Below are positions 1 to 42,139 of a DNA stretch of 42,470 nucleotides, in pieces (the first letter of the stretch is position 1; every line of letters starts with the position of its first letter). This stretch comes from a virus (Duplodnaviria > Heunggongvirae > Uroviricota > Caudoviricetes): the IMG/VR virus record IMGVR_UViG_2909288124_000001; one strand, 5' to 3'. Below the pieces are notes generated by a model. The model was not told where the DNA came from and searched no databases. It was given only the letters and a program-made list of their open reading frames with translations. The position numbers and the translations under genes are program-made.

Positions 1-1191
1 ATGGACGACAAACAATTGCAGGCTCTGGCTAACGAACTGGCCAAAAATCTCAAAACCCCTGAAGATCTCAGTCAGTTCGATCGCCTGCTCAAGAAAATCA
101 GTGTTGAGGCTGCTCTCAACGCTGAACTGACTCACCATCTGGGACATGAAAAAAATCAGCCCAAATCGGGAACCAACTCCCGTAATGGCTATTCCACGAA
201 AACCGTCACCACTACCGACGGGCCGATGGAATTACGTACTCCACGTGATCGTGATGGTTCCTTCGAACCACAACTGGTGAAGAAAAATCAGACCCGCATT
301 ACCGGCATGGACAACCAGATCCTGGCGCTGTATGCCAGAGGGATGACTACCCGCGAAATTACCTCAGTCTTCAAAGAAATGTACGATGCAGACGTCTCTC
401 CGGCGCTGATATCGAAAGTCACCGATGCCGCAATCGACCAGGTTGTAGAATGGCAAAACCGTCCTCTGGATGCGATTTATCCCATTGTTTATCTTGAATG
501 TATTGTCCTGAAAGTACGGCAGGACAGCCGGGTTATCAACAGAGCGGTGTTCCTGGCTCTGGGTATTAACCTTGATGGTCAGAAAGAGCTGCCAGGTATG
601 TGGCTGGCCGAAAATGAAGGTGCAAAGTTCTGGCTGAATGTACTGACGGAACTGAAAAATCGCGGGCTGAACGATATCCTTATCGCCTGTGTGGACGGCC
701 TGAAAGGCTTCCCGGAAGCGATTAATGCCGTCTACCCGGAGACGCAGATCCAGTTGTGCATAGTACACATGGCACGCAACAGCCTGCGGTTCTTGGCGTG
801 GAAAGACTATAAAGCGGTAACCCGTGACCTGAAACAGGTTTACCGCGCAGCCACGGAAGAAGGCGCGTTGCAGGCGCTGGATGCGTTCGGGAAGGAATGG
901 GATGCACGGTACCCGCAGATAAGTCGCAGCTGGCGGGCAAACTGGCCGAATGTTGCCACCTTCTTCGTGTATTCGGAGGCGATCCGCAAGGTTATCTACA
1001 CCACTAACGCAATCGAATCGCTGAATAGCGTCATCAGACATGCGATAAAGAAACGGAAAGTGTTCCCGATAGATGAATCGGTGAAAAAAGTGATGAGGCT
1101 GGCTATCCAGTCAGCCTCACAGAAATGGACGATGCCACTTCAGGACTGGCGGATAGCCATGAGTCGCTTTATTATCGAGTTCGGTGACTGA
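1..1191 (+). CDS. IS256-family (mutator-type) transposase
   Basis: 396-aa ORF from ATG at position 1; N-terminal motif ...AELTHHLGHEKNQPK... and overall layout typical of IS256-family transposases (recognised from memory, not searched). Confidence 0.85.
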   Translation: MDDKQLQALANELAKNLKTPEDLSQFDRLLKKISVEAALNAELTHHLGHEKNQPKSGTNSRNGYSTKTVTTTDGPMELRTPRDRDGSFEPQLVKKNQTRITGMDNQILALYARGMTTREITSVFKEMYDADVSPALISKVTDAAIDQVVEWQNRPLDAIYPIVYLECIVLKVRQDSRVINRAVFLALGINLDGQKELPGMWLAENEGAKFWLNVLTELKNRGLNDILIACVDGLKGFPEAINAVYPETQIQLCIVHMARNSLRFLAWKDYKAVTRDLKQVYRAATEEGALQALDAFGKEWDARYPQISRSWRANWPNVATFFVYSEAIRKVIYTTNAIESLNSVIRHAIKKRKVFPIDESVKKVMRLAIQSASQKWTMPLQDWRIAMSRFIIEFGD

Positions 1192-1766: not shown

Positions 1767-2648
1767 TTAAATGCTGGCGAACGCCATTGCCACTTCTGTA
1801 AAGCGCGATGTATACGTGTTTCTGGTCTCCGTCCTCAGATAGGGATTACCTTCGGGTAGCCGCCAGCGGAACAGCTTCTTGCCTTGCCCCACCAACCGGT
1901 ACAGTATTTCGCCGCTGAGCTTGCCGTGATTGGTTTTACCAAATAAAACCCACGTTTTGCTCTGACCCGGTTTCGGTGATTTACACCACCACCTCATCAG
2001 GGAAGCGATACCTGTACGGTATTTGCGGGCCAGCCAGTGAGCCAGCTTCCAGAACACGACACGGTCGATATAACTGAAGACTTTGGCCTTAAAATCAACG
2101 AACTGATAGAACATGGCCCAGCCTTTCAGTTTTCGGTTGAGTTGTTCAGCCATATCGACTTTGCTTTCACTGTAGTTGCCTGATAACAGTGCTGTCAGCG
2201 ATGCGGCGAAGTTTCTGGCTTTCTCCTGCGGGATCGTTGAGACCACTCGCATCTCGCCATAACGACTGCGTTTGCGAATGATCCTGTGCCCCAGAAAGAT
2301 AAAGCCGTCATTAACATGGGTGATTTTAGTCTTATCCATGTTCAGCCTGAGTTTCAGACTGCCTTCGAGCACACCCCGACACTCCTCCCTGATGGCTTCC
2401 GCCTGTGCTTTGGTGCCTTTGACGATGAGGACAAAATCATCGGCATAGCGGCAGTACGCCACCGCGGGTTTCCACTGCCAGTTTTCTCTGACCGCCGTAC
2501 TTCGGCCCCGTTGGATACTGTTATTCCAGTACCACCGATCTTTTCTGGCTTTCCCGCTCAGGTAGCGCTCATGCAGGTATTGATCGAACTCATTCAGCAT
2601 GATGTTCGATAATAGCGGCGATATAACACCGCCCTGTGGTACACCTTC
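1767..2648 (-). pseudogene. Group II intron reverse transcriptase/maturase, C-terminal fragment (RT domains 4-7 and X)
   Basis: GVPQGGVISPLLSNIML (RT domain 4) and YADDFVLIV (RT domain 5, YADD) motifs; continues upstream of the listed Met; N-terminal half is at 39616..40256. Confidence 0.8.
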
Positions 2649-2727: not shown

Positions 2728-3300
2728 TTACATTTCAGGTTGCGTTATGACAGTCCCAACAGGGTGATAGCGGTAGATCGTTGACAGTCCAATATCATAG
2801 ATAATTGCCAGCCGCTTTCTGTCATACCCTTTCTGGAGCAATCTTGCGATCTGCTCATGCTGCTCCTTCGTCAGTTTCGGGCGACGTCCTCCAACTCTTC
2901 CTTGTGCTCGCGCAGCAGCCAGTCCAGCCAGCGTGCGCTCAACTATCAGTTCACGCTCCATTTCTGCCAGTGCACCCATCATATGAAAAAAGAACCTTCC
3001 CATCGGAGTGCTGGTATCGATTGAATCCGTCAGACTGCGAAAATTGACACCTTTTGCGCGTAGCTCTTCTGTGAGAGCAATGAGGTGTTTCATTCTTCTA
3101 CCCAACCGATCCAGCTTCCAGACCACCAATGTATCCCCTCTTTTAAGGCACTTTAAAGCGCGTTTCAGGCCTGGTCGTTCCGACTTGGTTCCGCTCATTT
3201 TGTCCTCAAAAATCTGTTCACATCCTGCGCACATTAATGCATTGCGTTGCAAATCTGTGTTTTGGTCATTTGTTGACACACGTATGTAGCCAATCAGCAT
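2728..3300 (-). CDS. gin: Serine DNA invertase (Gin/Cin/Pin/Hin family)
   Basis: From internal ATG at 3300 (RBS AAGGGAG upstream): MLIGYIRVSTNDQNTDLQRNAL...GDTLVVWKLDRLGR...ALAEMERELIVERT... closely matches Mu Gin as recalled; 190 aa; sits next to an invertible tail-fiber segment. Confidence 0.9.
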   Translation of the reverse strand: MLIGYIRVSTNDQNTDLQRNALMCAGCEQIFEDKMSGTKSERPGLKRALKCLKRGDTLVVWKLDRLGRRMKHLIALTEELRAKGVNFRSLTDSIDTSTPMGRFFFHMMGALAEMERELIVERTLAGLAAARAQGRVGGRRPKLTKEQHEQIARLLQKGYDRKRLAIIYDIGLSTIYRYHPVGTVITQPEM

Positions 3301-3354
3301 TAAAAATACTCCCTTTTGAGTGGTTAAAGTACTGAGATAATGTGGGGAGGATTT

Positions 3355-3380
3355 GAGAGATAAACGTTGGTTTGGGGGAA
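3355..3380. other. gix/hix-like recombination site A (GAGAGATAAACG-TT-GGTTTGGGGGAA)
   Basis: Hin/Gin-type architecture (AAAC-NN-GGTTT core); homology with the fiber-gene site starts exactly at the central TT; crossover would keep the fiber reading frame. Confidence 0.5.
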
Positions 3381-3800
3381 GGCTCGGCGCTGCCCGTTGG
3401 TGTACCTGTTCCGTGGCCCACTGCCACACCGCCAGCAGGCTGGTTAAAGTGCGACGGGCGCGCCTTTACAAAAGAACAATATCCTGTTCTGGCCAGAGTC
3501 TACCCGACCCTCCGTCTTCCCGATTTACGCGGTGAGTTTATCCGTGGATGGGACGACGGGCGAAAAGTGGATACAGGGCGCGATCTGCTTTCACGGCAGG
3601 ATGGTACAAGTTTTTCTCATTACGCAGGTAATTTTGACATTGGGTCTGGTCATTCAATCAATAACTATGACCAAATCGTTGACAACCAACCTGGATTCTC
3701 CCGTTTTTCATTTGCAGGTCCTTCGCTAGGCGATGGGGTTAATTATGTGACCATTCGTCCCCGTAACATTGCGTTTAATTACATCGTAAGGGCGGCATAG
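3369..3800 (+). CDS. Silent alternative tail-fiber C-terminal cassette A (collar-like domain plus variable tip; no start codon of its own)
   Basis: Encodes LGEGSALPVGVPVPWPTATPPAGWLKCDGRAFTKEQYPVLARVYPTLRLPDLRGEFIRGWDDGRKVDTGR... ending RPRNIAFNYIVRAA; in frame from crossover site A. Confidence 0.7.
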   Translation, partial: GLGEGSALPVGVPVPWPTATPPAGWLKCDGRAFTKEQYPVLARVYPTLRLPDLRGEFIRGWDDGRKVDTGRDLLSRQDGTSFSHYAGNFDIGSGHSINNYDQIVDNQPGFSRFSFAGPSLGDGVNYVTIRPRNIAFNYIVRAA

Positions 3801-6469: not shown

Positions 6470-7565
6470 CAGACACTCCAGTCATGTTAAGAGTGATTGC
6501 CGTACAGTTTGCCCATTCGTTTTCTGCCACCACCCGCAGTGCCGGTGTCACCAGTTCAACCTGGTACACCCCGGAAACGGACAATGCACTGATAATCTGG
6601 CTGGGGACAATATCGCGCCCCAGCGTGGCGGCACGTGATGCCACCCAGTTCTGTATGGCGCTGTTAGCGGCATCTTTTACAGACCTGGCATCCTGATCAC
6701 GATAGATCGTAATCCTGGCTTCAATGGTGTAATCCACCTTCACTGGTGTTTTAGCCCGCACTGTATCAGTGAGTGGCCTGACTTTCTCATCAGAGCAGAA
6801 ACTCTCTACCAGCGTGAGAACACCGCCGTCCGGCAGACCGGTACTGAGCAGCGGATACAGATCTACGGTCCCGGGAACCGGGGAAAGCACAGCAACATCG
6901 ACAATGTTGGGATGGGCCTGCATGGCATGAAAGCGGTATGCGCCACGGCTTCCGGCATTGGTGAATGACTCCGGGGCCAGCCTGATACGCTCCCGGAGCC
7001 TGTCATCGTCTTCCTGTTCTGAACCGCCGGAACTGGCCGTCAGATTGCTCACCAGCAGGTCGACGTTATCAATCTCATCGAGTAACTGACTGACCTGCGC
7101 AGGTTGCCAGCCGTTACCAGCGGTACCGGGTTCGGTACAGGTGGACGTGACATTGACCAGCAGCAATCCGGCCTTCAGTACCACATCTGTATCGGTGGCA
7201 AAAATAACGCTGTCGGAAGCGCTGACGCGGGTGCCTGCCGGGATCAGCACATCAATGGCCAGTGCCTCATCTACGGAGAACTGGAGCGTGGTAGTGGCAG
7301 GCTGCGCGGCAAGACGGTATACACCGACCAGTTCACCGAGGTAATCAATCATCGGCTCACGGGCAAAGGCGACCAGATTCTGCTTTGCTGCCTCCTGTAC
7401 CGCAACCCTGACCAGCATTTCGCGATAGGCCCACAGATCAATCAGCAGACGTTCTGCCTGTGCCGGGTACAGCGTTTTGCCGGTATCCGCTTCATACTTC
7501 GCAATCATTTCTGCCGTGATTTTGTCGGCATCGCGTTCAATAAAATCGGGTTCTGTCAGCGCCAT
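6462..7565 (-). CDS. Baseplate protein J-like (P2 gpJ / Mu gp47)
   Basis: 367 aa ORF in conserved W-J-I order upstream of the fiber gene. Confidence 0.75.
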   Translation of the reverse strand: MALTEPDFIERDADKITAEMIAKYEADTGKTLYPAQAERLLIDLWAYREMLVRVAVQEAAKQNLVAFAREPMIDYLGELVGVYRLAAQPATTTLQFSVDEALAIDVLIPAGTRVSASDSVIFATDTDVVLKAGLLLVNVTSTCTEPGTAGNGWQPAQVSQLLDEIDNVDLLVSNLTASSGGSEQEDDDRLRERIRLAPESFTNAGSRGAYRFHAMQAHPNIVDVAVLSPVPGTVDLYPLLSTGLPDGGVLTLVESFCSDEKVRPLTDTVRAKTPVKVDYTIEARITIYRDQDARSVKDAANSAIQNWVASRAATLGRDIVPSQIISALSVSGVYQVELVTPALRVVAENEWANCTAITLNMTGVSDD

Positions 7566-7903
7566 AGCAGCTCCTGAGTCCGGGTCTGTCCGTCTGAGCC
7601 TTTCCAGCTCACCCGGAGCGTAAGATGTTCGCCGTCGACGGCGGGTTTAACTGACATAAGCTGGCAGCGGGGCTCCCAGCGCCGGATGGCATCGACGGAT
7701 TCGCGCACCACATGCGGAATGGCCCGGTCTACAGGCCAGTCGATATAAAGATGCAGATTGCTGCCGAACTCCGGGCGATGCGGGTCGCTGCCGCGGGGAG
7801 TCCGCAGGATAATTTGAATCGCCTGCCGGATATCATCCAGCCCCCGGACAATTTCGCCGGGAGCCTGCAGGGCTGGTTGCCAGAATACTGAGGTTGTTTT
7901 CAT
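7556..7903 (-). CDS. Baseplate protein W (gpW / T4 gp25-like)
   Basis: 115 aa ORF overlapping the gpJ-like start; size and position typical of the GPW_gp25 family. Confidence 0.7.
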   Translation of the reverse strand: MKTTSVFWQPALQAPGEIVRGLDDIRQAIQIILRTPRGSDPHRPEFGSNLHLYIDWPVDRAIPHVVRESVDAIRRWEPRCQLMSVKPAVDGEHLTLRVSWKGSDGQTRTQELLWR

Positions 7904-7957
7904 GGGGGCAGTATTGCCCCCGTGCGGGAACGCTGATATTAAAGGCGTTTAAAAAGC

Positions 7958-8554
7958 TCAGTGGGAGTGGTGGCTGGAGTTTTCGCCATCAGACAACATA
8001 CTGCCCGTGGCATGGGCATTCCCTTTAATCTCGATATTGCCATGGATGGTCGCGGTAACACCTTCACCACCAGAACCCGCCATGCCTCCTTCGTAAATCA
8101 GCTTCCCCCTGACACGCAGATCTCCGGTAAGTTCGGTTTCCGGTGCGTCAATCGTGGCTTTCTGTGTTTTCAATACCACATCAGCACCACACTCAATGAC
8201 AATATGCTCAATGCCGCCCCGGATGATCAGAGTGTGCGTCTTCCGGTTGTAGCTGTACTCTGCACCATCAGCAAACCGGGTTCCCCGGATATTTTTGTCA
8301 CTGAACGGTGGTTTATCGACGTCTGAATACACCGCGCCCAGAATAACACCATCCTCGCCGTTGGCATCGAGCAGCACCTCAACCTGCTCCCCCACGTCAG
8401 GGAGCCAGTAATCTTTGTTATCCTGGGTATTGCGCTGCAGCACGTTAAGCCAGTTTGTGCGCAGGTTATCGCATTCAGGCAGACGAACGCGGGCCTGAAC
8501 CCTGTCGGCATCAACGGCACTGACCGTACCGACCTGACGAGTGACACCAGTCAT
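7958..8554 (-). CDS. Baseplate spike protein V-like (P2 gpV / Mu gp45)
   Basis: 198 aa, Gly-rich C-terminus, follows gpD-like gene. Confidence 0.75.
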   Translation of the reverse strand: MTGVTRQVGTVSAVDADRVQARVRLPECDNLRTNWLNVLQRNTQDNKDYWLPDVGEQVEVLLDANGEDGVILGAVYSDVDKPPFSDKNIRGTRFADGAEYSYNRKTHTLIIRGGIEHIVIECGADVVLKTQKATIDAPETELTGDLRVRGKLIYEGGMAGSGGEGVTATIHGNIEIKGNAHATGSMLSDGENSSHHSH

Positions 8555-26560: not shown

Positions 26561-27284
26561 AACTGCTGCCTCCCCATGTGAGATATCGCGGTGCCAGTTC
26601 GCGCAGGATGCGCTGCGGATAATGGCGGTTCTCCCGCCAGCTGGCCGCATTGCGTCCGGCATTCACCGTGGCGACATGTCCGAACCAGCGGGTGCTGTCC
26701 AGACCTTTCTGTGATGCAAGCCGCCTGTCCCGTTGTACCCAGCCCAGACCACCGTTATAGCCCGACAGTGTCATGGCCATACGCTCGCAGTCACTGGCGG
26801 CGCTGACACGCTGCCACAGCCAGCGGTCATAGCTGACCAGCGCCCGGATAGCCCATGCCGGATTAAACGGCTCACGACTGCTCAGCATCGGTATCAACTG
26901 GCTTATCCAGTCGGCAGTGGCAGGCATGAACTGCGCCAGTCCCTGAGCGCCAGCCGGCGAGATCGCATCAGGTCGCCAGCCGCTTTCCTGATGCAGTTGC
27001 GCGGCGAAATCGGCCACCGGCGCAGACAGTCCCCATTCAAGCCGGGCATTACGGATCACATCATCGCGATACTGCAGCGCAGCCTGCGGAGGTTGTGCTG
27101 CGCATGCCTGGCTAAAAAAGCCGCCACACCAGAGCAACATTGCGACAAAGAATACCCATGCCATATGAACCAGAAAGGTCCCGGCGCGGACTGACAGGCG
27201 TTCGGTTCTGATGAAGACCCGAAAGGCTTCGAAAGCCAGTTTCAGGGACATGCATACAATCCAGGTGATCTGCGGCCAGTTCAT
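26544..27284 (-). CDS. Endolysin, lytic transglycosylase (SLT domain) with N-terminal signal-anchor-like segment
   Basis: Motif LHQESGWRPDAISPAGAQGLAQFMPATA (catalytic Glu-Ser plus GLxQ); hydrophobic MAWVFFVAMLLWCGGFFSQA before the catalytic domain; start codon coupled to holin stop (TAATCATG). Confidence 0.8.
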   Translation of the reverse strand: MNWPQITWIVCMSLKLAFEAFRVFIRTERLSVRAGTFLVHMAWVFFVAMLLWCGGFFSQACAAQPPQAALQYRDDVIRNARLEWGLSAPVADFAAQLHQESGWRPDAISPAGAQGLAQFMPATADWISQLIPMLSSREPFNPAWAIRALVSYDRWLWQRVSAASDCERMAMTLSGYNGGLGWVQRDRRLASQKGLDSTRWFGHVATVNAGRNAASWRENRHYPQRILRELAPRYLTWGGSSCVASG

Positions 27285-27286
27285 GA

Positions 27287-27637
27287 TTAAAGCCCCATCG
27301 CAACAGCCAGGCAGACCGCTGCAACAATCAGTGCACGGCGGATTAACGCAGCAGAAAACACCAGGTGAAGGCCGGTCTGTACCGGGAAACGCCCTTCAGC
27401 CATCAGCCTGTCGTCATGTTTCAGGTACTGACCGGGACGGGCTTTGGGGAAGAGCGAACGGTCAAGCCAGTAACCCAGCACTGCTGCCAGCGTGATGAGT
27501 GCCAGCTTGTAGATCACAACAGGCAGCTGCTGTGGTGAGACCAGAGCGATGGTGCCCAGCAACAGCACTGAGGTCAGCAGCCAGCCGCTGAGGCGAGGTT
27601 TTTTAACAGGGGGAATGAATTTTTTCAGGTTTTTCAT
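27287..27637 (-). CDS. Holin-like membrane protein
   Basis: ATG at 27637 with GAGGAG RBS; about 116 aa with 2-3 hydrophobic segments; first gene of lysis cassette. Confidence 0.5.
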   Translation of the reverse strand: MKNLKKFIPPVKKPRLSGWLLTSVLLLGTIALVSPQQLPVVIYKLALITLAAVLGYWLDRSLFPKARPGQYLKHDDRLMAEGRFPVQTGLHLVFSAALIRRALIVAAVCLAVAMGL

Positions 27638-27751
27638 GTGTGTCTCCTCGTTTGGTGGAGACAGCATCACAAATGTGGCGGGATACGGATTTTAAACAGC
27701 GTTAATAGTGAAGATGTAAACGTGCACTGCATGATGACTTTGAAAGAACGA

Positions 27752-27779
27752 CCAGCCCGGTACCCGAACACCGGGCTGG
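27752..27779 (-). terminator. GC-rich stem-loop (10-bp perfect stem CCAGCCCGGT/ACCGGGCTGG), putative minus-strand intrinsic terminator insulating the late lysis operon
   Basis: Perfect inverted repeat with 8-nt loop; on the minus strand followed by UCGUUCUUUC; lies between dam (plus) and holin (minus). Confidence 0.3.
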
Positions 27780-27884
27780 CCATCGCCCCACAGGAATGCG
27801 CTGTGAGCCGACCGAGGTTCAGTCAGTCTCGCGAGACCAGACTAGCCTGCCATATTTTTTATAATTGTAAAAGGCTTACAGATT

Positions 27885-28655
27885 ATGAAAATGCAGACAT
27901 TACCCATCGTTCCATGGATTGGTGGCAAACGCCGCCTTGCAAAACACATCCTGCCGCTGTTTCCGGCGCATGAATGTTATGTGGAGCCGTTTTGTGGGGC
28001 AGCAGCGCTCTATTTTCTTAAGGTACCCGGCAAGATCGAAGTCATTAATGATATCAACGGTGAACTGGTGAACCTGTATCGGGTAGTAAAACATCATCTG
28101 GAAGAATTTGTGCGCCAGTTCAAATGGGCGCTGGTCAGCCGGCAGATCTACAAATGGCTGCAGATCACCCCGGAAGAAACACTGACGGATATCCAGCGTG
28201 CAGCACGGTTCTACTACCTTCAGAAGCAGGCGTTTGGAGGCAAGGTGGCGGAGCACAGCTTTGGTACCTCCACCATATCCCCGCCACGCTTCAACCTGCT
28301 GCGTATTGAAGAAGAACTGTCAGCGGCACACCTGCGGCTTTCCAGAACGGTCATAGAACACATGGACTGGCAACAGTGCATAGAACGATATGATCGCCCG
28401 CATACGTTGTTCTACTGTGACCCTCCATACTGGGGAACGGAAGGTTATGGTGTGGAGTTCGGACTAGAAAATTATGATCATATGGCAGATTTAGCACGCA
28501 GGATCAAAGGGAAGATGATTATATCGGTGAACGATATCCCGGAAATGCGGCAGGCATTCAACGGTCTAAATATTCAGTCGGTTGATATCAGCTACAACCT
28601 CAAGATCACTGGCAAATCCAGTTGCAAGAAGGAACTCATTATCCTCAACTTTTGA
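27885..28655 (+). CDS. DNA adenine methyltransferase (Dam family, N6-adenine)
   Basis: 256 aa; motif I FCGAAALYF and motif IV DPPY (FYCDPPYWG); N-terminal WIGGKRRL typical of Dam-family enzymes. Confidence 0.85.
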   Translation: MKMQTLPIVPWIGGKRRLAKHILPLFPAHECYVEPFCGAAALYFLKVPGKIEVINDINGELVNLYRVVKHHLEEFVRQFKWALVSRQIYKWLQITPEETLTDIQRAARFYYLQKQAFGGKVAEHSFGTSTISPPRFNLLRIEEELSAAHLRLSRTVIEHMDWQQCIERYDRPHTLFYCDPPYWGTEGYGVEFGLENYDHMADLARRIKGKMIISVNDIPEMRQAFNGLNIQSVDISYNLKITGKSSCKKELIILNF

Positions 28656-29850
28656 CCGAATAGTAAGACTTCATGCAGTGAATCAAGTACTGCATGAAGT
28701 CAAGGGCTGGTTTTGTGTACCAAAAATAAACAGTGATAGCGGTAATAATTCCCATAACTAGAACACCACGTATAATCCAGAACGTACGTTTCTGCGTGTC
28801 TAGTCGCGCAGAAATACTGCTAAATACACCAGCCACGTCATCTTTAATGAAGGAATATTCCTTATTAATCTGTTTTTCTTTGTATTCAATTTCTTCGCCT
28901 AAGGCCTTTATAGATTGCATCTGGTTCGAAAGTGCCAGCCAGATTAACGTTGCAGCAAAAATGCATCCCAGAAGAATTATTGTGTTTGTTATCCCTTGGC
29001 CTGACCATTTCGTAGCCACTTTGAATTGGGTAGCTACGATAACAGAGGCAACAGGAATGCCAAGTATATGGTTCTGGATATCTGAAAACGCTTTGTGGAT
29101 TTTACCCATTTCTTCGACTTTTGCAGCACGCAGTTGATCCATTACTTTGTCATAAGAGAATCCAGAAGAGTAGATACGATACCCTTTCAGAAACTTTTCA
29201 TGCAGACGCTGAATATTGTCCAGTAAATAAGCGAATACTAGAGGTGAATCAATTCCATCACTAACTGCTTGGATACTTTCAATCAGAATATCTAGCTTCT
29301 GATCCTTATGGGTATCATCATTGAAACAAGCTATAAGGTTATCAAGATACTCTCTTTGCAAATTTTGTACATTTTCTGCAGCGAAGTGCGGTAATAGCTT
29401 GATAACTTCTTTTTTCAGAAAAACTAACTGACAAGTTGAGTTATCAAAGTAGGCCGCGGCCTCTTTTAGCAGGTTAACGAACTCGAGAATCTTCCGGTAG
29501 TTGCTGATGAAAACGGGGATATCTTCATCATCATTACGAAACTTTGTTTCTAGGATGAAGTAATTAGCTGGCTCAAGGCACTGATGCTTTGGAGCATTTA
29601 GCAATTTTTCATGGGTGGAAAACACAAGTCCCAGTCCACTCCGTGGTGACGTCACACGTAGGATGATCGTGTTACCTGGAGCGATAGTGCCTGTATCAAT
29701 AGAAAGACCATATTCACGAGGATCATCAAGCAAAGTATCAACCAGATCACAATCGGACTGATCTAAGAGCAACAGCGAACCGACACGAAACCCCTCTTGG
29801 AATTCCATACGACGATACAGAGCTGTCAGCATCTCAAATGAAATCGCCAC
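28645..29850 (-). CDS. Hypothetical protein with soluble N-terminal domain and two C-terminal transmembrane helices (candidate effector of a defence/exclusion cassette)
   Basis: 401 aa; predicted TM segments ITNTIILLGCIFAATLIWLALS and FWIIRGVLVMGIITAITVYFWY; AT-rich; 2-bp gap to upstream gene. Confidence 0.6.
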   Translation of the reverse strand: MAISFEMLTALYRRMEFQEGFRVGSLLLLDQSDCDLVDTLLDDPREYGLSIDTGTIAPGNTIILRVTSPRSGLGLVFSTHEKLLNAPKHQCLEPANYFILETKFRNDDEDIPVFISNYRKILEFVNLLKEAAAYFDNSTCQLVFLKKEVIKLLPHFAAENVQNLQREYLDNLIACFNDDTHKDQKLDILIESIQAVSDGIDSPLVFAYLLDNIQRLHEKFLKGYRIYSSGFSYDKVMDQLRAAKVEEMGKIHKAFSDIQNHILGIPVASVIVATQFKVATKWSGQGITNTIILLGCIFAATLIWLALSNQMQSIKALGEEIEYKEKQINKEYSFIKDDVAGVFSSISARLDTQKRTFWIIRGVLVMGIITAITVYFWYTKPALDFMQYLIHCMKSYYSVKS

Positions 29851-29852
29851 GA

Positions 29853-30860
29853 TTAAACCTCAGTCATCCACATTTCCCTAAATTCTTCAGGTACATTACG
29901 TAGGGTGATAATATTTGTTTCCGGATCATAATCAATATAGCCTTCAGTTTTCCCTTCCCGGTCAAACTTAAGTTCCCAATATTTAGACTTGCCTTTAAAA
30001 GATACCAGAGCCCGAATGACTCGACCATCAGGAACGAAGCCATCCGATAACTCCAACTCTTCAGCAGCAAGTTTACCAGATAACTCCTCGGGAGCCTGGG
30101 GCCAAATGGCATTAACAAGGGTTTCAAGACTAAGTGGTTCACCAGCCTTACTTAGTGCATGTAAGTGTTCAAACGCACTCTTAAGAAATGCATCTTTTTC
30201 AGCGCCGTCAAGTCCTTTTTCTGCCGCAAATGCTTTTAAAACGTCACGTAACTTTTCAGACTCTCGTTTGGCGATTAAGACATCATTACAGCCGAGGAAC
30301 TGTTTAAAATAGTTTGAAACATTACCTTGCCCCTTAAGAAAACTGATATAGCGCTCTGCGCCACTTTCCCACGCGGTTAAGTCAATGCGCCCAGCCATAC
30401 GCAGCTTAGCAATATCAAGATAGGTACTATCTTGGATGTTAAAATCATCTGTGACAGTGGATCCAATGGTAGCGCTTACAATAGCTATCAACAGGTGTTC
30501 ATTGTGTCCTATCACGATATTTGCAAAAAGAACATAACCACCAGTAGCCATGTTTTCTCGCTGAGAACGTTCCGTCAGGTGATGCATCATTCGGCAGGAA
30601 CTTTGGTAGAAATCATCAACACCTTCGAGAAAGTCCCCAGCCATTCGTTCCATAGGATAGTTATCCGTATCGCCTTCAAAATAGCCATAACCTTTACCTG
30701 TGCGTCCTGCATATTTTGCACAAATATCGTTTATAAGGCGCTGGGAGGCTTCAGTAACTAGACCTTCTTCAGGACTCAATCTCTCAGAAGCGTCTCCATT
30801 TTGTTGTTTGTCTAAAATGTGAACTACAACGTGTTTAACTTCAATGGTCTGCTCAGACAT
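29853..30860 (-). CDS. NA37 (NdpA/YejK)-like nucleoid-associated-protein homologue (candidate sensor of a defence/exclusion cassette)
   Basis: 335 aa (same length as E. coli YejK); stretches GGYVLF, GRIDLTAWES, RYISFLKG, FLG resemble YejK as recalled from memory; ATG with AAGGTGGA RBS; directly downstream of repressor gene. Confidence 0.55.
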   Translation of the reverse strand: MSEQTIEVKHVVVHILDKQQNGDASERLSPEEGLVTEASQRLINDICAKYAGRTGKGYGYFEGDTDNYPMERMAGDFLEGVDDFYQSSCRMMHHLTERSQRENMATGGYVLFANIVIGHNEHLLIAIVSATIGSTVTDDFNIQDSTYLDIAKLRMAGRIDLTAWESGAERYISFLKGQGNVSNYFKQFLGCNDVLIAKRESEKLRDVLKAFAAEKGLDGAEKDAFLKSAFEHLHALSKAGEPLSLETLVNAIWPQAPEELSGKLAAEELELSDGFVPDGRVIRALVSFKGKSKYWELKFDREGKTEGYIDYDPETNIITLRNVPEEFREMWMTEV

Positions 30861-30930
30861 TAGCTATCCACCTTATTTTTTATTGCTTAATGGCAAATAA
30901 TTTCTGCTATATGTTCTCGTTAGGAACACA

Positions 30931-31338
30931 TTAACCCACATTTTTTAACCGCTCAATCGTTGCGGATAATTCCTTCAGTTGTTTTTCCATCTCAATCACA
31001 CGCTGTTTTTCTTCAGCGCCTCGCATGAGATCTCGCCGAACCTCAGGATCTAACTGGTTTAGAAGTTCAAGCATTTTAAGGTCTGACGGGCTGAATTGAT
31101 GTTGTGTTGGTACAGCAACAATTTCTTTAGATGGAATATGTTCTTTACCGGTAAGTAGCCAATCGATCGATACACCCAAATGGGTACTTAGCGCAACAAG
31201 AGCCTCTGCGTTTGGTTCTCTCTCTCCACGCAAATAGTTTTGAAGTGAGCGATATGGAATTTTTGATAAGTCAGATAATGCCTTTATTGTCATGCCATTA
31301 GCATCCATCACTTCACGCAATCTCTCTTTTGTACTCAT
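30931..31338 (-). CDS. Prophage repressor (HTH XRE-type, c-like)
   Basis: From ATG at 31338: helix-turn-helix region ...MTIKALSDLSKIPYRSLQNYLRGEREP... plus C-terminal coiled coil; divergent from early operon. Confidence 0.7.
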   Translation of the reverse strand: MSTKERLREVMDANGMTIKALSDLSKIPYRSLQNYLRGEREPNAEALVALSTHLGVSIDWLLTGKEHIPSKEIVAVPTQHQFSPSDLKMLELLNQLDPEVRRDLMRGAEEKQRVIEMEKQLKELSATIERLKNVG

Positions 31339-31354
31339 TTGAACATATCTCAAT

Positions 31355-31382
31355 TTGACACACTCATTTGGGTGTGTACAAT
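31355..31382 (+). promoter_or_regulatory. Putative early promoter (TTGACA-16-TACAAT) with embedded inverted repeat ACACAC-N8-GTGTGT (candidate operator)
   Basis: Near-consensus sigma70 hexamers 45 bp upstream of ner-like start and 17 bp from the repressor start codon. Confidence 0.4.
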
Positions 31383-31426
31383 AGACCCAATAGAGTACAT
31401 CATAACCTAACAGGAACACGGTGCAT

Positions 31427-31651
31427 ATGAACAAACAACAAGTTCGGGCACGGCTGGTTGAACGAGGCAGTAGCTTGCGCCAGTTCGCGCTTAACGCGGG
31501 CTATGAACCACGAACAGTCACCCAGGCAGTCAGTCGCTGGGCTGGTAAAAGTGAACTACCTCGCGGTCGTTTGACTTATCGGATTTTGCGAGATCTATCG
31601 GTTGCAATAGGTAAAGAAGTTACCCCCGGTATCCTTAAGGAGGCGTCATGA
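31427..31651 (+). CDS. ner: Ner-like DNA-binding protein
   Basis: 74 aa from ATG at 31427; pattern ...SLRQFALNAGYEPRTVTQAVSRW... parallels Mu Ner (...LSALSRQFGYAPTTLANALERHW...) as recalled; first gene of early operon. Confidence 0.6.
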   Translation: MNKQQVRARLVERGSSLRQFALNAGYEPRTVTQAVSRWAGKSELPRGRLTYRILRDLSVAIGKEVTPGILKEAS

Positions 31652-31956
31652 ATAAACCAAATACATCAAGCTCAGGTACCCGTATTTTGCGCGTTCTTAA
31701 GGCCTTACGTGGCCACGCTTTGAACGGTGTTTCTAACGGGGAACTAGCGGTTGCACTGCACGAATCACCGGCAAACATCAACCGGGCACTTAACACGCTC
31801 ATTGAAGAAGGGTTGGCTCTGAAACTAGAAAACGGGCGTTTCGCACCAGGCATCCAGTTGCTGCAGATCGCCATGGCCCACAGTAACGAGATGGCACGTG
31901 CACAGGATCGCATTAACGAAATCAACCAACGTGTTATTTCAGGTAGTCGTTTGTAA
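31648..31956 (+). CDS. Hypothetical early protein (possible winged-helix DNA-binding)
   Basis: 102 aa ORF overlapping ner-like stop. Confidence 0.45.
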   Translation: MNKPNTSSSGTRILRVLKALRGHALNGVSNGELAVALHESPANINRALNTLIEEGLALKLENGRFAPGIQLLQIAMAHSNEMARAQDRINEINQRVISGSRL

Positions 31957-31966
31957 GGAGTAATCA

Positions 31967-32878
31967 ATGGGACGCACCAAATCACCGGTTAGCACTGAAC
32001 TGAACGTCGAGGTACCGCTGTCGGATGATCTCAATGTCAGTCTAAACGCCATGACACAGCATCGCATGGAAATCATGCAACAGTTCGGCGATGGTCTGCC
32101 CTATGAGCGCGATCGTGTTGTCCATGAGGCACGCTTTTATATGGCACAGAGCGCTGAGGCCATGCTGGAGGCAGGTAAGCGGCTGATAATCCTTAAGGAA
32201 AATGAACCACACGGGGAGTTTATAAAGATTCTTGAAAGTGAGTTGGGGCTGGCATACCGGACATCTGTGAGAATGATGCAAGCATCGACAAAATACTTAT
32301 CCCCGGCGCTGAAACCAAATGTGCCAACGTTGGCACATTTGGGAAAAGCCAAACTTTTCGAATTAATGACAGAAGACGACGAAGAGCTTGCCGAACTGGC
32401 CGACGGCGGCACAGTTGCCGGCCTGACGCTTGACGACGTTGATCGCATGTCAGTACGTGAATTGCGTCAGGCCCTGCGCGAAGCGCGCGAAACCAACGCA
32501 GCACAACAGCGCGTACTCGCTGACAAAAATGAAAAAATAGACTCACTCTCCACCAGACTGGAGAAGAAATCCCGTATTCAGCCGCCTGAGCCTGATGAAG
32601 AGGTTAAGAAGCTGCGGGCGGAAGTGACAGCATTAGCGGTTGAGGCGGAATCTGCTATCGCCGTTCGACTGTCCAGCGCTTTTGAGACGCTGTGCGCATA
32701 TTGTGCTGAAAACATGATTGATACCCCCAGAGACTTCATGGCAGGCCTGGTCTGTCAACTGGAAAGCACAGCGCGTAGCCTGCGCTCCACATTTGACCTG
32801 CCGGATGAGCCAACAGGCAATGCCGCGCCTTCATGGCTGACTGAGCCGACGCCACAGATTAACGGGCTGGAGGCATAA
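31967..32878 (+). CDS. Hypothetical early protein
   Basis: 303 aa ORF between ner-like and transposase genes; no recognised motif. Confidence 0.5.
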   Translation: MGRTKSPVSTELNVEVPLSDDLNVSLNAMTQHRMEIMQQFGDGLPYERDRVVHEARFYMAQSAEAMLEAGKRLIILKENEPHGEFIKILESELGLAYRTSVRMMQASTKYLSPALKPNVPTLAHLGKAKLFELMTEDDEELAELADGGTVAGLTLDDVDRMSVRELRQALREARETNAAQQRVLADKNEKIDSLSTRLEKKSRIQPPEPDEEVKKLRAEVTALAVEAESAIAVRLSSAFETLCAYCAENMIDTPRDFMAGLVCQLESTARSLRSTFDLPDEPTGNAAPSWLTEPTPQINGLEA

Positions 32879-32881
32879 CCA

Positions 32882-34651
32882 ATGAATGCTGCCCTGACTG
32901 AACGACTGGTTTATGTCGCCCGCGCGGCACGTGACGCGGGGCATGGTAAACGCGGTGCAATATACGACGCTGCCTGTGCTGAACTTGGCATGTCCCGCGC
33001 CACTCTGCTGCGCAGGCTGAAGGAGGTCTCTGTGACTGATAAACGCAAAAAACGCGCTGATGCCGGACGCAGCGCCCTGACCCGCGACGAAGCCGCGCTG
33101 ATATCTGCCACACTGCGTGAGGCCACCCGCAAGAACGGTAAGCGCCTCTATTCCATCGCAGATGCAGTGGAAACCCTGCGGGCTAACGGCTTTATCACCG
33201 CAGGCAGAACAGATGAAACCACCGGTGAGTTTTTCCCGTTGTCTGAAGATGCCATCAGCCGTGCTCTGCGTAACTATGGCCTGCACCCGGAACAACTGGA
33301 TGCTCCTGCACCGCATACCGAAGTGGCCAGTCTGCACCCCAATCATGTCTGGCAGATTGACGCCTCACTCTGCACGCTTTACTACCTGAGCAATGGACAT
33401 AAAGGGCTGCAGGTGATGGACAGCGCGAAGTTCTACAAGAACAAGCCCGCTAACCTTGCCCGTATCGCCAGTGACCGCGTGTGGAGTTACGAGATTACCG
33501 ACCATGCCAGCGGCTGGATTTACGTTGAGTATGTGACGGGCGCGGAATCAGGTGAGAACCTGTGTTCTGTGCTTATCAACGCCATGCAGGAGCGTGGCGG
33601 CGCAGACGTGCTGCACGGCGTGCCAAAAATACTCTATCTCGACCCCGGCTCGGCAAACACCGCGGGTATGACGAAAAACATGTGCCGCTCACTGGGCATC
33701 GACCTGATAGCGCACAAGCCGCATAACGCCCGCGCCACCGGACAGGTGGAAAAGGCGCGAGACATTATCGAACGCAAGCTGGAGCCGGGTCTGAAGTTCC
33801 GGCCGGTTCACAGTCTGGAAGAACTCAACGCGCTGGCCGCGAAATGGCGCAGCCACTTTAACGCCACGGCTGTTCACAGCCGCCACGGTAAAACCCGCAC
33901 GGATATCTGGCTGAAGATTACTGCTGAGCAGCTGAAAAAAGCGCCTTCCGTTGAGGTATGTCATGAACTGGCTGTGGCGGCACCAGAACTCCGCAAAGTC
34001 ACGCCAAAACTTCGTGTCTCGTTCCGGGGCACTGAATTTGACGTATCAACGGTACCGGGCGTACTGGTTGGTGAAAAACTGATGATTACCCGTAACCCAT
34101 GGCGCAGCGATGTGGCACAGGTGGTTCTGACCGGTGAGGACGGCCACGAGACGTTCTTCCTGGTCGAAGAGGTCAGAAAGAACGAGTTTGGCTTTGCTGA
34201 AGGCGCGGCGGTATTTGGCGAAAGTTACAAAGCCCTGCCGGAAACCCCGGCACAGATGGCGGCAAAAGAAACCGAAGCGCTGGTTACCGGTACAGACAAC
34301 GCCGCAGATGCAGCCGCCGCACGCAAGGCGAAGGCGCTGCCGTTCGGCGGGCGGCTTGACCCGTATAAACATATCGACGACACCACACTTCCGGCCTATA
34401 TGCCGAAGCGTGGTCAGGCCTCTGACGTACGCGGGCCGCGCACTGAACAACGTCCCATGACTCATGTGGAGGCCGCGAAAGCCCTGCGCGATAAGTTCAG
34501 CGCCGACGGCCTTACCTGGACGCCGGAACATTACCGCCAGTTAACGGCACAGTACCCGGACGGCGTACCGGAAGCCGCACTGGATGAAGTCATGGCCACG
34601 CTGACCACACCGGCCCGCAGCAGTGTTATCAGCATTGTTAACGGCAACTGA
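32882..34651 (+). CDS. Phage DDE transposase (Mu A functional equivalent; integrase-core type)
   Basis: 589 aa; candidate catalytic residues in HVWQIDASL, YLDPGSANT and a downstream Glu; N-terminal HTH-like region; followed by AAA+ ATPase gene. Confidence 0.8.
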   Translation: MNAALTERLVYVARAARDAGHGKRGAIYDAACAELGMSRATLLRRLKEVSVTDKRKKRADAGRSALTRDEAALISATLREATRKNGKRLYSIADAVETLRANGFITAGRTDETTGEFFPLSEDAISRALRNYGLHPEQLDAPAPHTEVASLHPNHVWQIDASLCTLYYLSNGHKGLQVMDSAKFYKNKPANLARIASDRVWSYEITDHASGWIYVEYVTGAESGENLCSVLINAMQERGGADVLHGVPKILYLDPGSANTAGMTKNMCRSLGIDLIAHKPHNARATGQVEKARDIIERKLEPGLKFRPVHSLEELNALAAKWRSHFNATAVHSRHGKTRTDIWLKITAEQLKKAPSVEVCHELAVAAPELRKVTPKLRVSFRGTEFDVSTVPGVLVGEKLMITRNPWRSDVAQVVLTGEDGHETFFLVEEVRKNEFGFAEGAAVFGESYKALPETPAQMAAKETEALVTGTDNAADAAAARKAKALPFGGRLDPYKHIDDTTLPAYMPKRGQASDVRGPRTEQRPMTHVEAAKALRDKFSADGLTWTPEHYRQLTAQYPDGVPEAALDEVMATLTTPARSSVISIVNGN

Positions 34652-38646: not shown

Positions 38647-39088
38647 ACAACGTCTTATCCAGCTCATTAATATTGCCCGTAATGAACTGGGTATGGATGA
38701 AGACACCTACCGCCAGATGTTACAGGGGCTGACCGGTAAAGCCTCAACCAAAGGAATGGATACCACACAACTAAACTGCGTGCTGGAATCCATGAAAAGG
38801 AAAGGCTTTCGCGTTAAGCCTGCCAGAAAAGCCAGCTCCGGTTTACCGCTGGATAACCATCCGCAGTCCAGGAAAATCCGTGCGCTATGGCTTGAAATGG
38901 CTGCTGCCGGCATTGTTCGTGACCGTTCAGAAAATGCATTAGCGCGGTGGATCAAGCGGGAAACGGGCATCAGCGCCCTGCGCTGGCTCAATACTGAACA
39001 GGCAAGCAGTGTTATTGAGAAACTGAAGAAGTGGCAGCACAGAGCTGCGGGAGTAAAACATGAGCGACCTGAATCAGTTTCGAAGTAA
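38636..39088 (+). CDS. gemA: GemA-like protein (Mu gp16 family)
   Basis: ATG at 38636 with AAGGAG RBS; MMTKQRLIQLINIARNELGMDEDTYRQML... resembles Mu GemA N-terminus as recalled. Confidence 0.65.
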   Translation: MMTKQRLIQLINIARNELGMDEDTYRQMLQGLTGKASTKGMDTTQLNCVLESMKRKGFRVKPARKASSGLPLDNHPQSRKIRALWLEMAAAGIVRDRSENALARWIKRETGISALRWLNTEQASSVIEKLKKWQHRAAGVKHERPESVSK

Positions 39089-39449
39089 AGGGCCGGAACT
39101 CCTGGTGGAACTGGCACAGCATACCTCTGAGACCGTTCGCGAGATTATTGATATTGAGCCCGCAATTGCCGACCAGATTGGTCAGGCCGTCGCGAACCGC
39201 ATGATGCAGGTCTGGGGCGGGCAAAACGTTTATTTCCCGATGGGCATGGTATGGAAGGTCAGTCAGCGCGACCGGGAAATCTTCAGGGAGTTTAACGGAC
39301 GTAACCACCATGAACTGGCCCGCAAATTTGGTGTTTCGCTTCAGTGGGTCTACAGCGTGGTTAAGCGGGTAAGAAAAGAAGAACTGGATCGGATGCAGGG
39401 CAAGCTATTTGCTGATGAACCCGATGTAGATACGGAGAAAAAAGAGTAA
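39060..39449 (+). CDS. mor: Mor/C-family transcriptional activator (middle/late gene activator)
   Basis: 129 aa (same length as Mu Mor); C-terminal HTH-like ...HELARKFGVSLQWVYSVVKR...; last gene of early operon. Confidence 0.75.
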   Translation: MSDLNQFRSKGPELLVELAQHTSETVREIIDIEPAIADQIGQAVANRMMQVWGGQNVYFPMGMVWKVSQRDREIFREFNGRNHHELARKFGVSLQWVYSVVKRVRKEELDRMQGKLFADEPDVDTEKKE

Positions 39450-39609
<160 letters not shown>

Positions 39610-39615
39610 CCTTCA
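39610..39615. repeat. Target-site duplication CCTTCA, right copy
   Basis: Identical to 2644..2649. Confidence 0.6.
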
Positions 39616-40256
39616 CTGGCCGCCCGAAAGAGACCGACATCGATATGTCCCGCCTTGATGGTTTTCCACAGCAGAGTCATGAAACGTGCGTCACTGATCC
39701 TGCGGCGTACAGCCTTCATCAGCAGTCGATGATGTACGGTGTCGAAGTAACTGGACAGGTCGCCTTCAATCACCCAGCGTCCCCGGGTTTCACCACAGTC
39801 TGTGAGCTGTAATTTCACCGTGCGGATCGCGTGGTGGACACTGCGCTCAGGCCGGAAGCCATATGAGAGCGTATGAAAATCACTCTCCCATATCGGCTCC
39901 ATCGCCATCAGCATGGCCCGCTGAACAATACGATCCCGCAACGCGGGGATACCCAGTGGTCGCAGTTTGCCGTTGCTTTTAGGGATGTAAACCCGTCTGG
40001 CGGGCAAGGGCTGGTAGTGGCCTGAGAGTAATTCATCCCTGAGGATTTGCAGCTCAACAGCCAGTCTGGCCTGTAGCATTGTTTTGTTCACGCCATCAAC
40101 GCCGGGGGTATGGGCCCCCTTTGATGAAAGCGTGATCCGCGCCGCTTCAGCCAGCCATTCTGGTTGTGTTATCAGACGCAGCAGCCGTTGAATCCGTAGG
40201 GACGGATCGGTGGCTGCCCATGTGGCAAGCTTGCGTTGCATTTCGCTGATTATCAA
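39616..40256 (-). pseudogene. Group II intron reverse transcriptase, N-terminal fragment (RT domains 0-3)
   Basis: ...IPKSNGKLRPLGIPALRDRIVQRAM...LSYGFRPERSVHHAI...WVIEGDLSSYFDTVHHRLLM...; last two codons (Asp-stop) come from the prophage end. Confidence 0.8.
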
Positions 40257-41341: not shown

Positions 41342-42139
41342 TGTAGATTCAATCTGTCAATGCAACACCCCTTTCAATTATCTCTTTCGGTGTTTTGAAC
41401 TTCAGTGTCTTTCTCGGTCTGTTGTTTAGCTGAGCAGCAACCAGATCTAGTTCATGTTGAGTATATTGGGCAAGACATGTCTTTTTAGGAAAGTACTGCC
41501 GAATTAGCCCATTTGTGTTCTCATTTGTTCCCCGCTGCCAAGGACTCTGAGGATCGCAGAAGTAAACTTTAACGCCGGTGCTGACAGTAAATTCTAGATG
41601 TCTGGCCAGTTCCATTCCTCTGTCCCATGTCAGTGATTTTCTGAGTTCTGACGGTAAACTCAGGAATTTGTCGGTAAGAGCCTGATTTACTGAGACAGAA
41701 TCTTTGCCCCTGAGTCTAAGGATGATCGTATAACGTGATTTTCGGTCTACAAGTGTGGCTATATGAGAGTTTTTTGTACCTGAGACTAAATCGCCCTCCC
41801 AATGCCCCAGAGAGCGTCTGTTATCGATATTTCGGGAACGTTCGTGAATTGGTGTTCCGTTCACTATGTTAATCGTACCTCTTTCGCCTTTGCGGGTATG
41901 ACGCCTGCCATGGCGAAGGCTATGCGACCGTCGCAGATGCTGTATATTCAGGTGGTGTAGCGCTTCACGGCTACGAAAGTACAGCGTTTTATAAATTGTC
42001 TCAGGTGATATTCGCAGCGTTTTTTGACGTGGTTTTGTTCGCCTTAACCATCCTGATATTTGCTCTGGAGACCATTTCATCTCCAGCTTTTCCAGAACAA
42101 GCTTTCGCAATGGTAAATTTTGATCCAGTAAGCACGGTT
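41342..42139 (-). mobile_element. IS30-like element, truncated by IS1 insertion
   Basis: Terminal sequence TGTAGATTCAATCTGTCAATGCAACA at 41342; transposase ORF lacks N-terminal part; IS1 left end begins at 42140. Confidence 0.7.
41349..42139 (-). pseudogene. IS30-family transposase, N-terminally truncated
   Basis: ...HWEGDLVSGTKNSHIATLVDRKSRYT...FCDPQSPWQRGTNENTNGLIRQYFPK... matches IS30 transposase as recalled. Confidence 0.8.

Follow-up and report, generated by a model that had tools for sequence, protein, structure and literature searches.

A candidate self-protection methyltransferase and its conserved leader in a BcepMu-type prophage of Escherichia coli

Phage Mu carries a late DNA-modification gene, mom, whose product forms acetamido-adenine and whose translation start is controlled through mRNA structure. 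Mu-like prophages of Haemophilus and Neisseria carry at the mom position the non-specific N6-methyladenine methylases Hia5, Hin1523 and Nma1821 (PMC3299994). A third relevant enzyme, M.EcoMIV of prophage Phi2 in E. coli EC958 (sequence type 131, ST131), gave a low reverse-transcription PCR signal in the lysogen, with transcription significantly below that of dam; no methylome motif was assigned to it, and none of the homologues above 65% identity had a recognition site in REBASE (PMC4659465). Here we analyse a related orphan methyltransferase gene, hereafter the methylase, together with the sequences before and behind it, in IMG/VR record IMGVR_UViG_2909288124_000001. This stretch of 42,470 nucleotides, called the window throughout, carries a transposable E. 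coli prophage of the BcepMu type (Bcepmuvirus-like). The best reading of the locus, to which we give a probability of roughly one half, is that of a lytic-phase, post-transcriptionally gated methylase for self-protection.

Like Hia5, Hin1523 and Nma1821, the methylase is an orphan, is D12-related and lies on a transposable prophage, and the role presumed for those enzymes, broad protection of phage DNA in place of Mom, is the one that we propose here. The Hia5-type gene lies at the right end of its genome, whereas the methylase lies in the centre of the prophage. We took gp53 of Haemophilus phage SuMu to represent the Hia5/Hin1523 family, on the grounds of its position, its com neighbour and a DPPY motif at about residue 190. 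This mom-position methylase barely reaches PF02086 (23 bits) and gives no significant match to our methylase (BLASTP E = 0.057). On this proxy and the central location, membership of the Hia5 family was rejected, as was M.EcoGII as a relative, because it is a beta-class enzyme. The likeness to mom would lie in regulation: in a transposable phage the methylase too would serve late DNA modification and have its translation start controlled by mRNA structure, as its leader leads us to infer. Mom chemistry is unlike the amino-methylation expected here, and the leader is longer than that of mom and has four hairpins. No Com homologue or small CxxC...CxxC open reading frame (ORF) was found near the methylase in the window. 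In SuMu (7361-8362), a Com zinc-ribbon gene stands directly 5' of the D12-like methylase gene at the mom position, so Com-type translational control appears to have been kept where a methylase replaced Mom.

From its published description and the prophage position in EC958, M.EcoMIV would be EC958_1101 (WP_000783854.1), which is 88% identical to the methylase overall. Both loci lie in BcepMu-type prophages, between holin and repressor, and have the same leader. Residues 1-180, including the segment that aligns with the DNA-recognition hairpin of EcoDam, differ at 2 positions, whereas the C-terminal ~75 residues are only ~65% identical, which places a recombination junction near the DPPY motif. 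The segments compared for this C-terminal part are 28456-28655 of the window and 8360-8552 of the EC958 sequence. Unlike the methylase gene of the window, that of EC958 abuts the repressor gene, has three other cargo genes on its holin side and lacks a YejK-like cassette.

The methylase gene, its leader and the hairpin behind it are laid out as follows, in window coordinates; nt denotes nucleotides.

27741..27884, plus strand: structured leader of ~150 nt with a purine-rich 5' end and four hairpins, H1-H4 (folding, covariation)
27752-27761 / 27770-27779, plus strand: leader hairpin H1 (folding, covariation)
27787-27793 / 27801-27807, plus strand: leader hairpin H2, CACAG/CTGTG (folding, covariation)
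27815-27848, plus strand: leader hairpin H3, a long stem enclosing the 12-bp palindrome GTCTCGCGAGAC at 27826-27837 (folding, covariation)
27855-27860 / 27866-27872, plus strand: leader hairpin H4, abutting the Shine-Dalgarno (SD) sequence AAGG at 27871-27874 (folding, covariation)
27885..28655, plus strand: orphan alpha-class (D12) DNA amino-methyltransferase, 256 amino acids, ATG start (PF02086, motifs I and IV)
28667..28701, no strand assigned: perfect inverted repeat with 13-nt arms (28667-28679 / 28689-28701) and a 9-nt loop (repeat search, folding)

A preliminary description of the window had presented the gene as Dam-like and prophage-borne, and an intact D12 methyltransferase ORF in a BcepMu-type prophage is what we find. 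RefSeq makes the identical call (WP_081177962.1, named 'DNA adenine methylase' by PGAP), Pfam PF02086 (MethyltransfD12) matches residues 11-234 at 7e-28 with 98.4 bits against a cut-off of 22, and the PADLOC profile MTase_II PDLC03253 matches at 6e-115. Motif I (EPFCGAAA, residues 34-41) is N-terminal, with the last Gly of FxGxG replaced by Ala, and motif IV is DPPY (residues 179-182), the order being that of the D12 class with the recognition region in between. Inactive motifs had been named beforehand as a finding that would speak against the gene; motif I and DPPY are both present, DPPY is invariant in 81 family members and, to judge by the sequence, the catalytic core is intact. The segment aligned with the EcoDam recognition hairpin is also conserved across the 81 homologues, which suggests one specificity shared within the subfamily.

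The enzyme is an orphan, as had been claimed. Its neighbours encode a holin, a 401-amino-acid protein, an NA37 protein and a helix-turn-helix (HTH) repressor, so the adjacent restriction endonuclease gene that marks a type II restriction-modification system is absent; searches of profile libraries and the annotation found no nuclease domain among these neighbours and no nuclease annotation in any annotated prophage gene. Its orientation was also correctly described, since the holin and late operon to the left and the 401-amino-acid, NA37 and repressor genes to the right all lie on the minus strand, and the overlap with the convergent gene is exactly 11 bp (28645-28655). In itself the methylase gene is ordinary, being already catalogued in RefSeq and having a REBASE-named homologue, and orphan D12 methylases are frequent in prophages.

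The sequence before the gene, which was noticed during the promoter search, is less ordinary. Homology among relatives begins abruptly ~145 nt 5' of the methylase ATG, regardless of the DNA further left. Across 23 enterobacterial sequences, 93.7% of cells in the predicted helices are paired and 15 pairs show double-sided changes, compared with 34-45% paired in slid controls; the H3 palindrome, for instance, occurs as GTCTCG/CGAGAC, GTCATC/GATGAC and GTTCTC/GAGAAC. A covariance model built from enterobacterial leader sequences and spanning H2 to the SD gave full-length plus-strand matches that run up to the start codon of remote methylase homologues, among them those in a Francisella metagenome-assembled genome (58 bits), Methylophilaceae, Nitrosomonas, Iodobacter, Burkholderia and Pseudomonas phage UMP151 (49 bits), with a weak match in Burkholderia phage PhiBt-E264.1. 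H1 also occurs upstream of the methylase in distant loci, and the subfamily is always preceded by the leader, across several phage types. A search of Rfam 15 with 27200-31800, both strands, gave no leader match at E <= 1. The leader is a conserved covarying element that is absent from this RNA family library.

When the wider set of leaders was folded with RNAalifold, the AGCCU of the H3 3' arm paired with the AGGCU of the SD and not with the AGGCU of the H3 5' arm. The presence of the same AGGCU in the H3 5' arm and in the SD suggests a switch in which a decoy SD and the SD would compete for one anti-SD. A long-range pairing CUGUGAGCC:GGCUUACAG, predicted from the enterobacterial alignment, showed no covariation and was of a size expected by chance, and we do not rely on it.

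Behind the gene, the preliminary description had reported an 11-bp perfect inverted repeat (28669..28699) inside the convergent coding sequence; the repeat is real and lies there, with arms that are longer, at 13 bp, and extend over 28667-28701. It begins 11 nt after the methylase stop, within the last 20 codons of the 401-amino-acid gene; no other perfect inverted repeat in the window reaches 13 bp (loop 3-20), and none arose in 60 first-order Markov simulations. Its folding energy is -24.9 kcal/mol on the plus strand (z = -4.8) and -21.2 on the minus strand (z = -2.7). In Mixta and in E. coli AREA_C483, both ~90% identical here, the two arms are unchanged while loop and flanks vary. Brenneria, whose membrane protein is 82% identical at the protein level, has arms ACTACATGCGGT / ACTGCATGTAGT, in which a T:A to A:T double change keeps the pairing, together with one G.U on the plus strand. 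Both changes are non-synonymous in the overlapping 401-amino-acid gene (F to Y and K to stop), which argues that selection acts on the pairing and not on the peptide. Distant homologues of that gene (at most 37% identity) were too diverged for a nucleotide-level test of the hairpin. Hairpins at the same place elsewhere differ in kind, from a canonical plus-strand terminator with a T-run in Photorhabdus and a bidirectional one in Xenorhabdus to a minus-strand terminator of the repressor gene in EC958. We read the hairpin of the window as an element that lies between two convergent transcripts and serves as a 3' end or as a stabiliser, on either strand.

We propose that the ~150-nt leader, the 256-residue alpha-class methyltransferase and the 3' hairpin form a horizontally mobile, self-contained module, which in enterobacterial BcepMu-type phages lies in the cargo zone that separates the late (lysis) operon from the repressor. 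The methylase would be off in the lysogen and produced in lytic growth, when it would modify replicating phage DNA before packaging, probably at N6 of adenine and at a target that may not be GATC; being methylated before packaging, virion DNA would therefore resist restriction in the next host. Such an enzyme would be a functional analogue of Mom in Mu and of the unrelated Hia5/Hin1523-type methylases, and protection of phage DNA seems the most plausible role. The leader would probably gate translation, the AGCCU of the H3 3' arm alternating between the AGGCU of the 5' arm and that of the ribosome-binding site, in a manner comparable to Com control of mom, and the 3' hairpin would end or stabilise the methylase transcript where the convergent repressor and cargo operon meets it. 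A more specific version, which we hold only tentatively, is that the leader is a new cis-regulatory RNA switch responding to some signal (a phage protein, or possibly S-adenosylmethionine or S-adenosylhomocysteine) and gating a methylase of non-GATC or relaxed specificity that fills the role of Mom in BcepMu-type and other proteobacterial phages.

Several observations weigh against this proposal. E. coli already methylates its GATC sites, and if GATC is the target, protection adds little in this host. The sigma-70 scan located no methylase promoter, and relatives do not keep its best -10 element, TATAAT at 27860-27865. The wider leader set of 26 sequences (92.3% of cells paired, 14 covarying pairs, and a covariation score of 0.33 compared with 0.15 for shuffled and at most 0.075 for slid alignments) was aligned by fitting to the model, which favours the structure. 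Within the leader helices, G.U and A.C mismatches are equally frequent (32 and 28), so wobble pairs do not show the plus-strand RNA to be the folded species; counts of this kind were discarded as a means of deciding the strand. Covariation extends to the innermost pairs of H3, whose palindrome has no loop, and this would fit a DNA site for a dimeric protein equally well. Next to the 3' hairpin there is no U-tract on the plus strand, and three of the architectures examined (the window, KP12 and EC958) have the T-rich tail on the minus strand, so that the hairpin may serve the convergent operon instead; in the window this tail is UUACUAUU and comes before the stop of the 401-amino-acid gene. The earlier suggestion that this hairpin ends or stabilises the methylase transcript thus keeps its support from the selection on the paired arms and loses its assignment to a strand.

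The principal rival, which we find doubtful, holds that the methylase is a true GATC (Dam-type) enzyme keeping replicating phage DNA GATC-methylated, whether to avoid cleavage of the MutH/DpnII type or for the timing of transposition or packaging. Fold, motif order I...IV and DPPY are common to the methylase and the GATC-specific alpha-class D12 enzymes EcoDam, T4 Dam and DpnM, its best PDB matches (DpnM, EcoDam and the N4-cytosine enzyme M.CbeI among them) include three GATC enzymes, the PGAP name is that of a DNA adenine methylase, and the TIGR00571 'dam' subfamily model is passed, though only marginally, at 115.8 bits against 114.85. In a dam+ lysogen, moreover, GATC methylation by the enzyme would not show up in the methylome, and this would explain an M.EcoMIV without a motif. 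Identity to the three GATC enzymes is nonetheless only ~25%; the alignment is significant over the full length for EcoDam, as for M.CbeI, partial for DpnM (residues 3-183), and T4 Dam was not retrieved at E < 0.01. The NCBIfam Dam equivalog model NF008152 failed with 68.3 bits against a cut-off of 441. We take the GATC-contact residues of EcoDam, from the published EcoDam-DNA structure, to be K9, N120, L122, R124 and P134; in the HMMER alignment to 2G1P all five are substituted in the methylase, by P10, G118, K120, A122 and S132. The label 'Dam-family' given to the gene beforehand is thus right at the level of the D12 fold and unsupported at the level of orthology, a Dam orthologue being rather unlikely on these alignments.

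Moreover, the prophage is poor in GATC (102 sites against 143-181 expected), above all in its early region (9 against 25-30 expected, about three-fold fewer), which would be surprising if the phage secured its own GATC methylation. Homologues of 65-76% identity are common in Betaproteobacteria, and many such hosts are not known to have Dam. That REBASE gave no recognition site to homologues above 65% identity (PMC4659465) also counts against a GATC enzyme. The methylase aligns over its full length with M.CbeI (PDB 7M6B; E = 1.5e-14), with DPPY in both, and their recognition-aligned segments (F-x-G-x-V ... R-F) are alike. M.CbeI is an alpha-class N4-cytosine methylase from the restriction-modification system of a thermophilic Firmicute (PMC8616854), and thus differs from the presumed N6-adenine methylase here both in targeting N4 of cytosine and in having a restriction partner. 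On account of this resemblance, homology fixes neither the target site nor, strictly, the target base. Literature on BcepMu, Campylobacter CJE0220, Acinetobacter AamA, the Ralstonia GTWWAC enzyme and the Klebsiella methylome gave no close homologue that fixes the specificity.

What the methylase recognises matters for a large set of proteins. DNA related to its gene is present in 578 of 5426 complete E. coli genomes, including ST131, so that the subfamily occurs in about one in ten of them, as well as in many Enterobacterales and Betaproteobacteria. There are more than 7900 protein homologues, of which the top 120 listed are ~91% identical and spread over Enterobacterales. A contig scan with one genome per species gave 583 methylase loci; the best 80 of these, 65-91% identical, include Photorhabdus, Xenorhabdus, Pantoea, Erwinia, Chromobacterium, Burkholderia, Paraburkholderia and Nitrosomonas, and ~20 Enterobacterales loci among them retain the context of a leftward holin gene and a rightward methylase gene, followed further along by IclR, DUF3102 and transposase genes. 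Sequence comparison across prophages of Beta- and Gammaproteobacteria indicates strong purifying selection on the methylase. The label 'Dam' or 'GATC' on thousands of database entries may be wrong, since the subfamily has no known target and lacks the GATC-reading residues of Dam, and the methylase could represent a new specificity of practical use. What may be new here is thus the probably non-canonical specificity of a very widespread enzyme, together with its conserved leader, on which post-transcriptional gating of a phage anti-restriction function, as in the com/mom system of Mu, could be tested directly.

The leader itself could alternatively be made up of DNA-level signals, an explanation we think unlikely, in which H1 would be a minus-strand terminator insulating the late promoter from read-through of the repressor operon and the H3 palindrome would be the operator of a dimeric regulator. 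The promoter in question is the following.

27687..27705, minus strand: late-promoter-like motif TTAACGCTGTTTAAAATCC (also written TTAACGCnnTTTAAAATCC), ~50 nt upstream of the holin start (conservation)

It is kept in all enterobacterial relatives and recognisable in BcepMu, and on account of this conservation it is probably a Mor-dependent late promoter. H1 lies directly upstream of it and has its T-rich tail on the minus strand, as such a terminator would; the covariation at the centre of the loop-less palindrome and the lack of strand bias in the wobble pairs are likewise what DNA-level signals would give. Against this, the order and orientation of H1-H4 are fixed relative to the methylase start despite different neighbours, including an upstream gene on the same strand, and the element ends at the ribosome-binding site and holds two SD copies and their complement. 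H1 alone is ~90% paired on either strand. The palindrome GTCTCGCGAGAC was also considered as a repeated operator or Mor site and rejected, being unique in the window with near-matches at chance frequency. Sigma-70 and terminator scans near the methylase gave counts no higher than in shuffled sequence.

That the methylase might act epigenetically in the lysogen, on phage promoters, as had been suggested beforehand, or on host promoters, appears improbable. Orphan methylases can regulate promoters, and the gene adjoins the immunity region. The weak transcription of M.EcoMIV in the EC958 lysogen, below that of dam, and its failure to yield an additional motif (PMC4659465) argue against such control. 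The preliminary description had further pointed to GATC or other motif clusters in the phage promoters as a sign of it; we found no GATC cluster in phage promoters or regulatory DNA, the holin-dam and repressor-ner intergenic regions containing no GATC at all.

Functional coupling of the methylase to the pair of genes on its right, for instance by marking self DNA, is very improbable: the 11-bp gene overlap and the recurrence of the arrangement in Mixta and Brenneria speak for it, but the full arrangement of methylase and cassette is present in only ~18 of the 578-635 E. coli genomes with related DNA, other cargo or none stands there elsewhere, other phages carry homologues of the membrane protein too, the methylase and leader occur in unrelated phage types, and published PANGU systems work without a methylase. 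The genes in question, and the repressor beyond them, are these.

28645..29850, minus strand: 401-amino-acid protein, a predicted membrane protein (phrog_5023; weak NCBIfam DS1_2 and KwaA matches)
29853..30860, minus strand: YejK/NdpA-like nucleoid-associated protein (NA37), partner of the 401-amino-acid protein (NA37 match, 1e-80)
30931..31338, minus strand: HTH (cI-type) repressor (library match and annotation)

By published architecture the NA37 and 401-amino-acid pair resembles PANGU type II, or DefensePredictor DS-1, and the 401-amino-acid protein resembles Pag2B. As published, type II PANGU consists of a YejK-like sensor and a C-terminally membrane-anchored effector. The NCBIfam DS1_1/DS1_2 models NF053868 (1e-17) and NF053869 (3e-21) match the pair far below their cut-offs, and the KwaA-like match is weak and confined to the C-terminal part of the 401-amino-acid protein (residues 262-394). 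No hairpin separates the end of the repressor gene from the start of NA37, so in the lysogen the repressor and the pair probably share a transcript that runs toward the methylase. Among the best 80 of the 583 loci, only Mixta tenebrionis and a Brenneria have the YejK-like and 401-amino-acid pair beside the methylase, whereas in Klebsiella phage KP12, E. coli S12, phage PhiKM and ST131 strains the methylase is flanked by other small genes or none, and BcepMu has three unrelated genes and no methylase at the holin-repressor site. Because the flanking genes vary in this way between relatives, we take the holin-repressor region to be a cargo zone with the methylase as its most frequent resident. 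The cassette being variable cargo, the juxtaposition of the methylase with a defence-like cassette, to which attention had been drawn, therefore looks incidental.

The remainder of the prophage is arranged as two arms around this zone, and the 3.9 kb around the methylase are 100% identical in E. coli N21 and 99.6-99.8% identical in 16 further complete genomes. The late arm runs leftward on the minus strand from the holin gene (27287-27637) through an SLT endolysin, a spanin-like lipoprotein, terminase, head genes and tail genes to a Gin-like invertase at its end (2728-3429). Between the arms stand, in order, the methylase gene (27885-28655, plus strand) and, on the minus strand, the 401-amino-acid, NA37 and repressor genes. 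The early arm runs rightward on the plus strand from a ner-like gene at 31427 through an IclR-type HTH gene, DUF3102, a DDE transposase (32882-34651), an ExeA-like MuB analogue, Gam and others to the Mor activator (39060-39449), which is the last. A second perfect inverted repeat, of 12 bp with a 4-nt loop (32315-32326 / 32331-32342), lies within the DUF3102 gene of the early operon.

The Gin-like serine invertase (minus strand) adjoins tail-fibre and tail-fibre-assembly genes that reach to ~5900. This region differs by about 470 nt from its counterpart in E. coli N21, whose prophage is nearly identical elsewhere, and the difference is consistent with an invertible or variable host-range segment.

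The prophage has apparently transposed into the reverse-transcriptase/maturase gene of a group II intron. Of that gene, the C-terminal half lies on the left (RVT_1 146-205 and GIIM, 1767-2600, minus strand) and its N-terminal part on the right (RVT_1 1-96, 39603-40256, minus strand). Fragments of an rve integrase lie around the intron, at 1219-1614 and 41349-42110, both on the minus strand, and an IS256-type Mutator transposase occupies the edge of the window (1-1191, plus strand), so that the ends of the window look like nested mobile elements.

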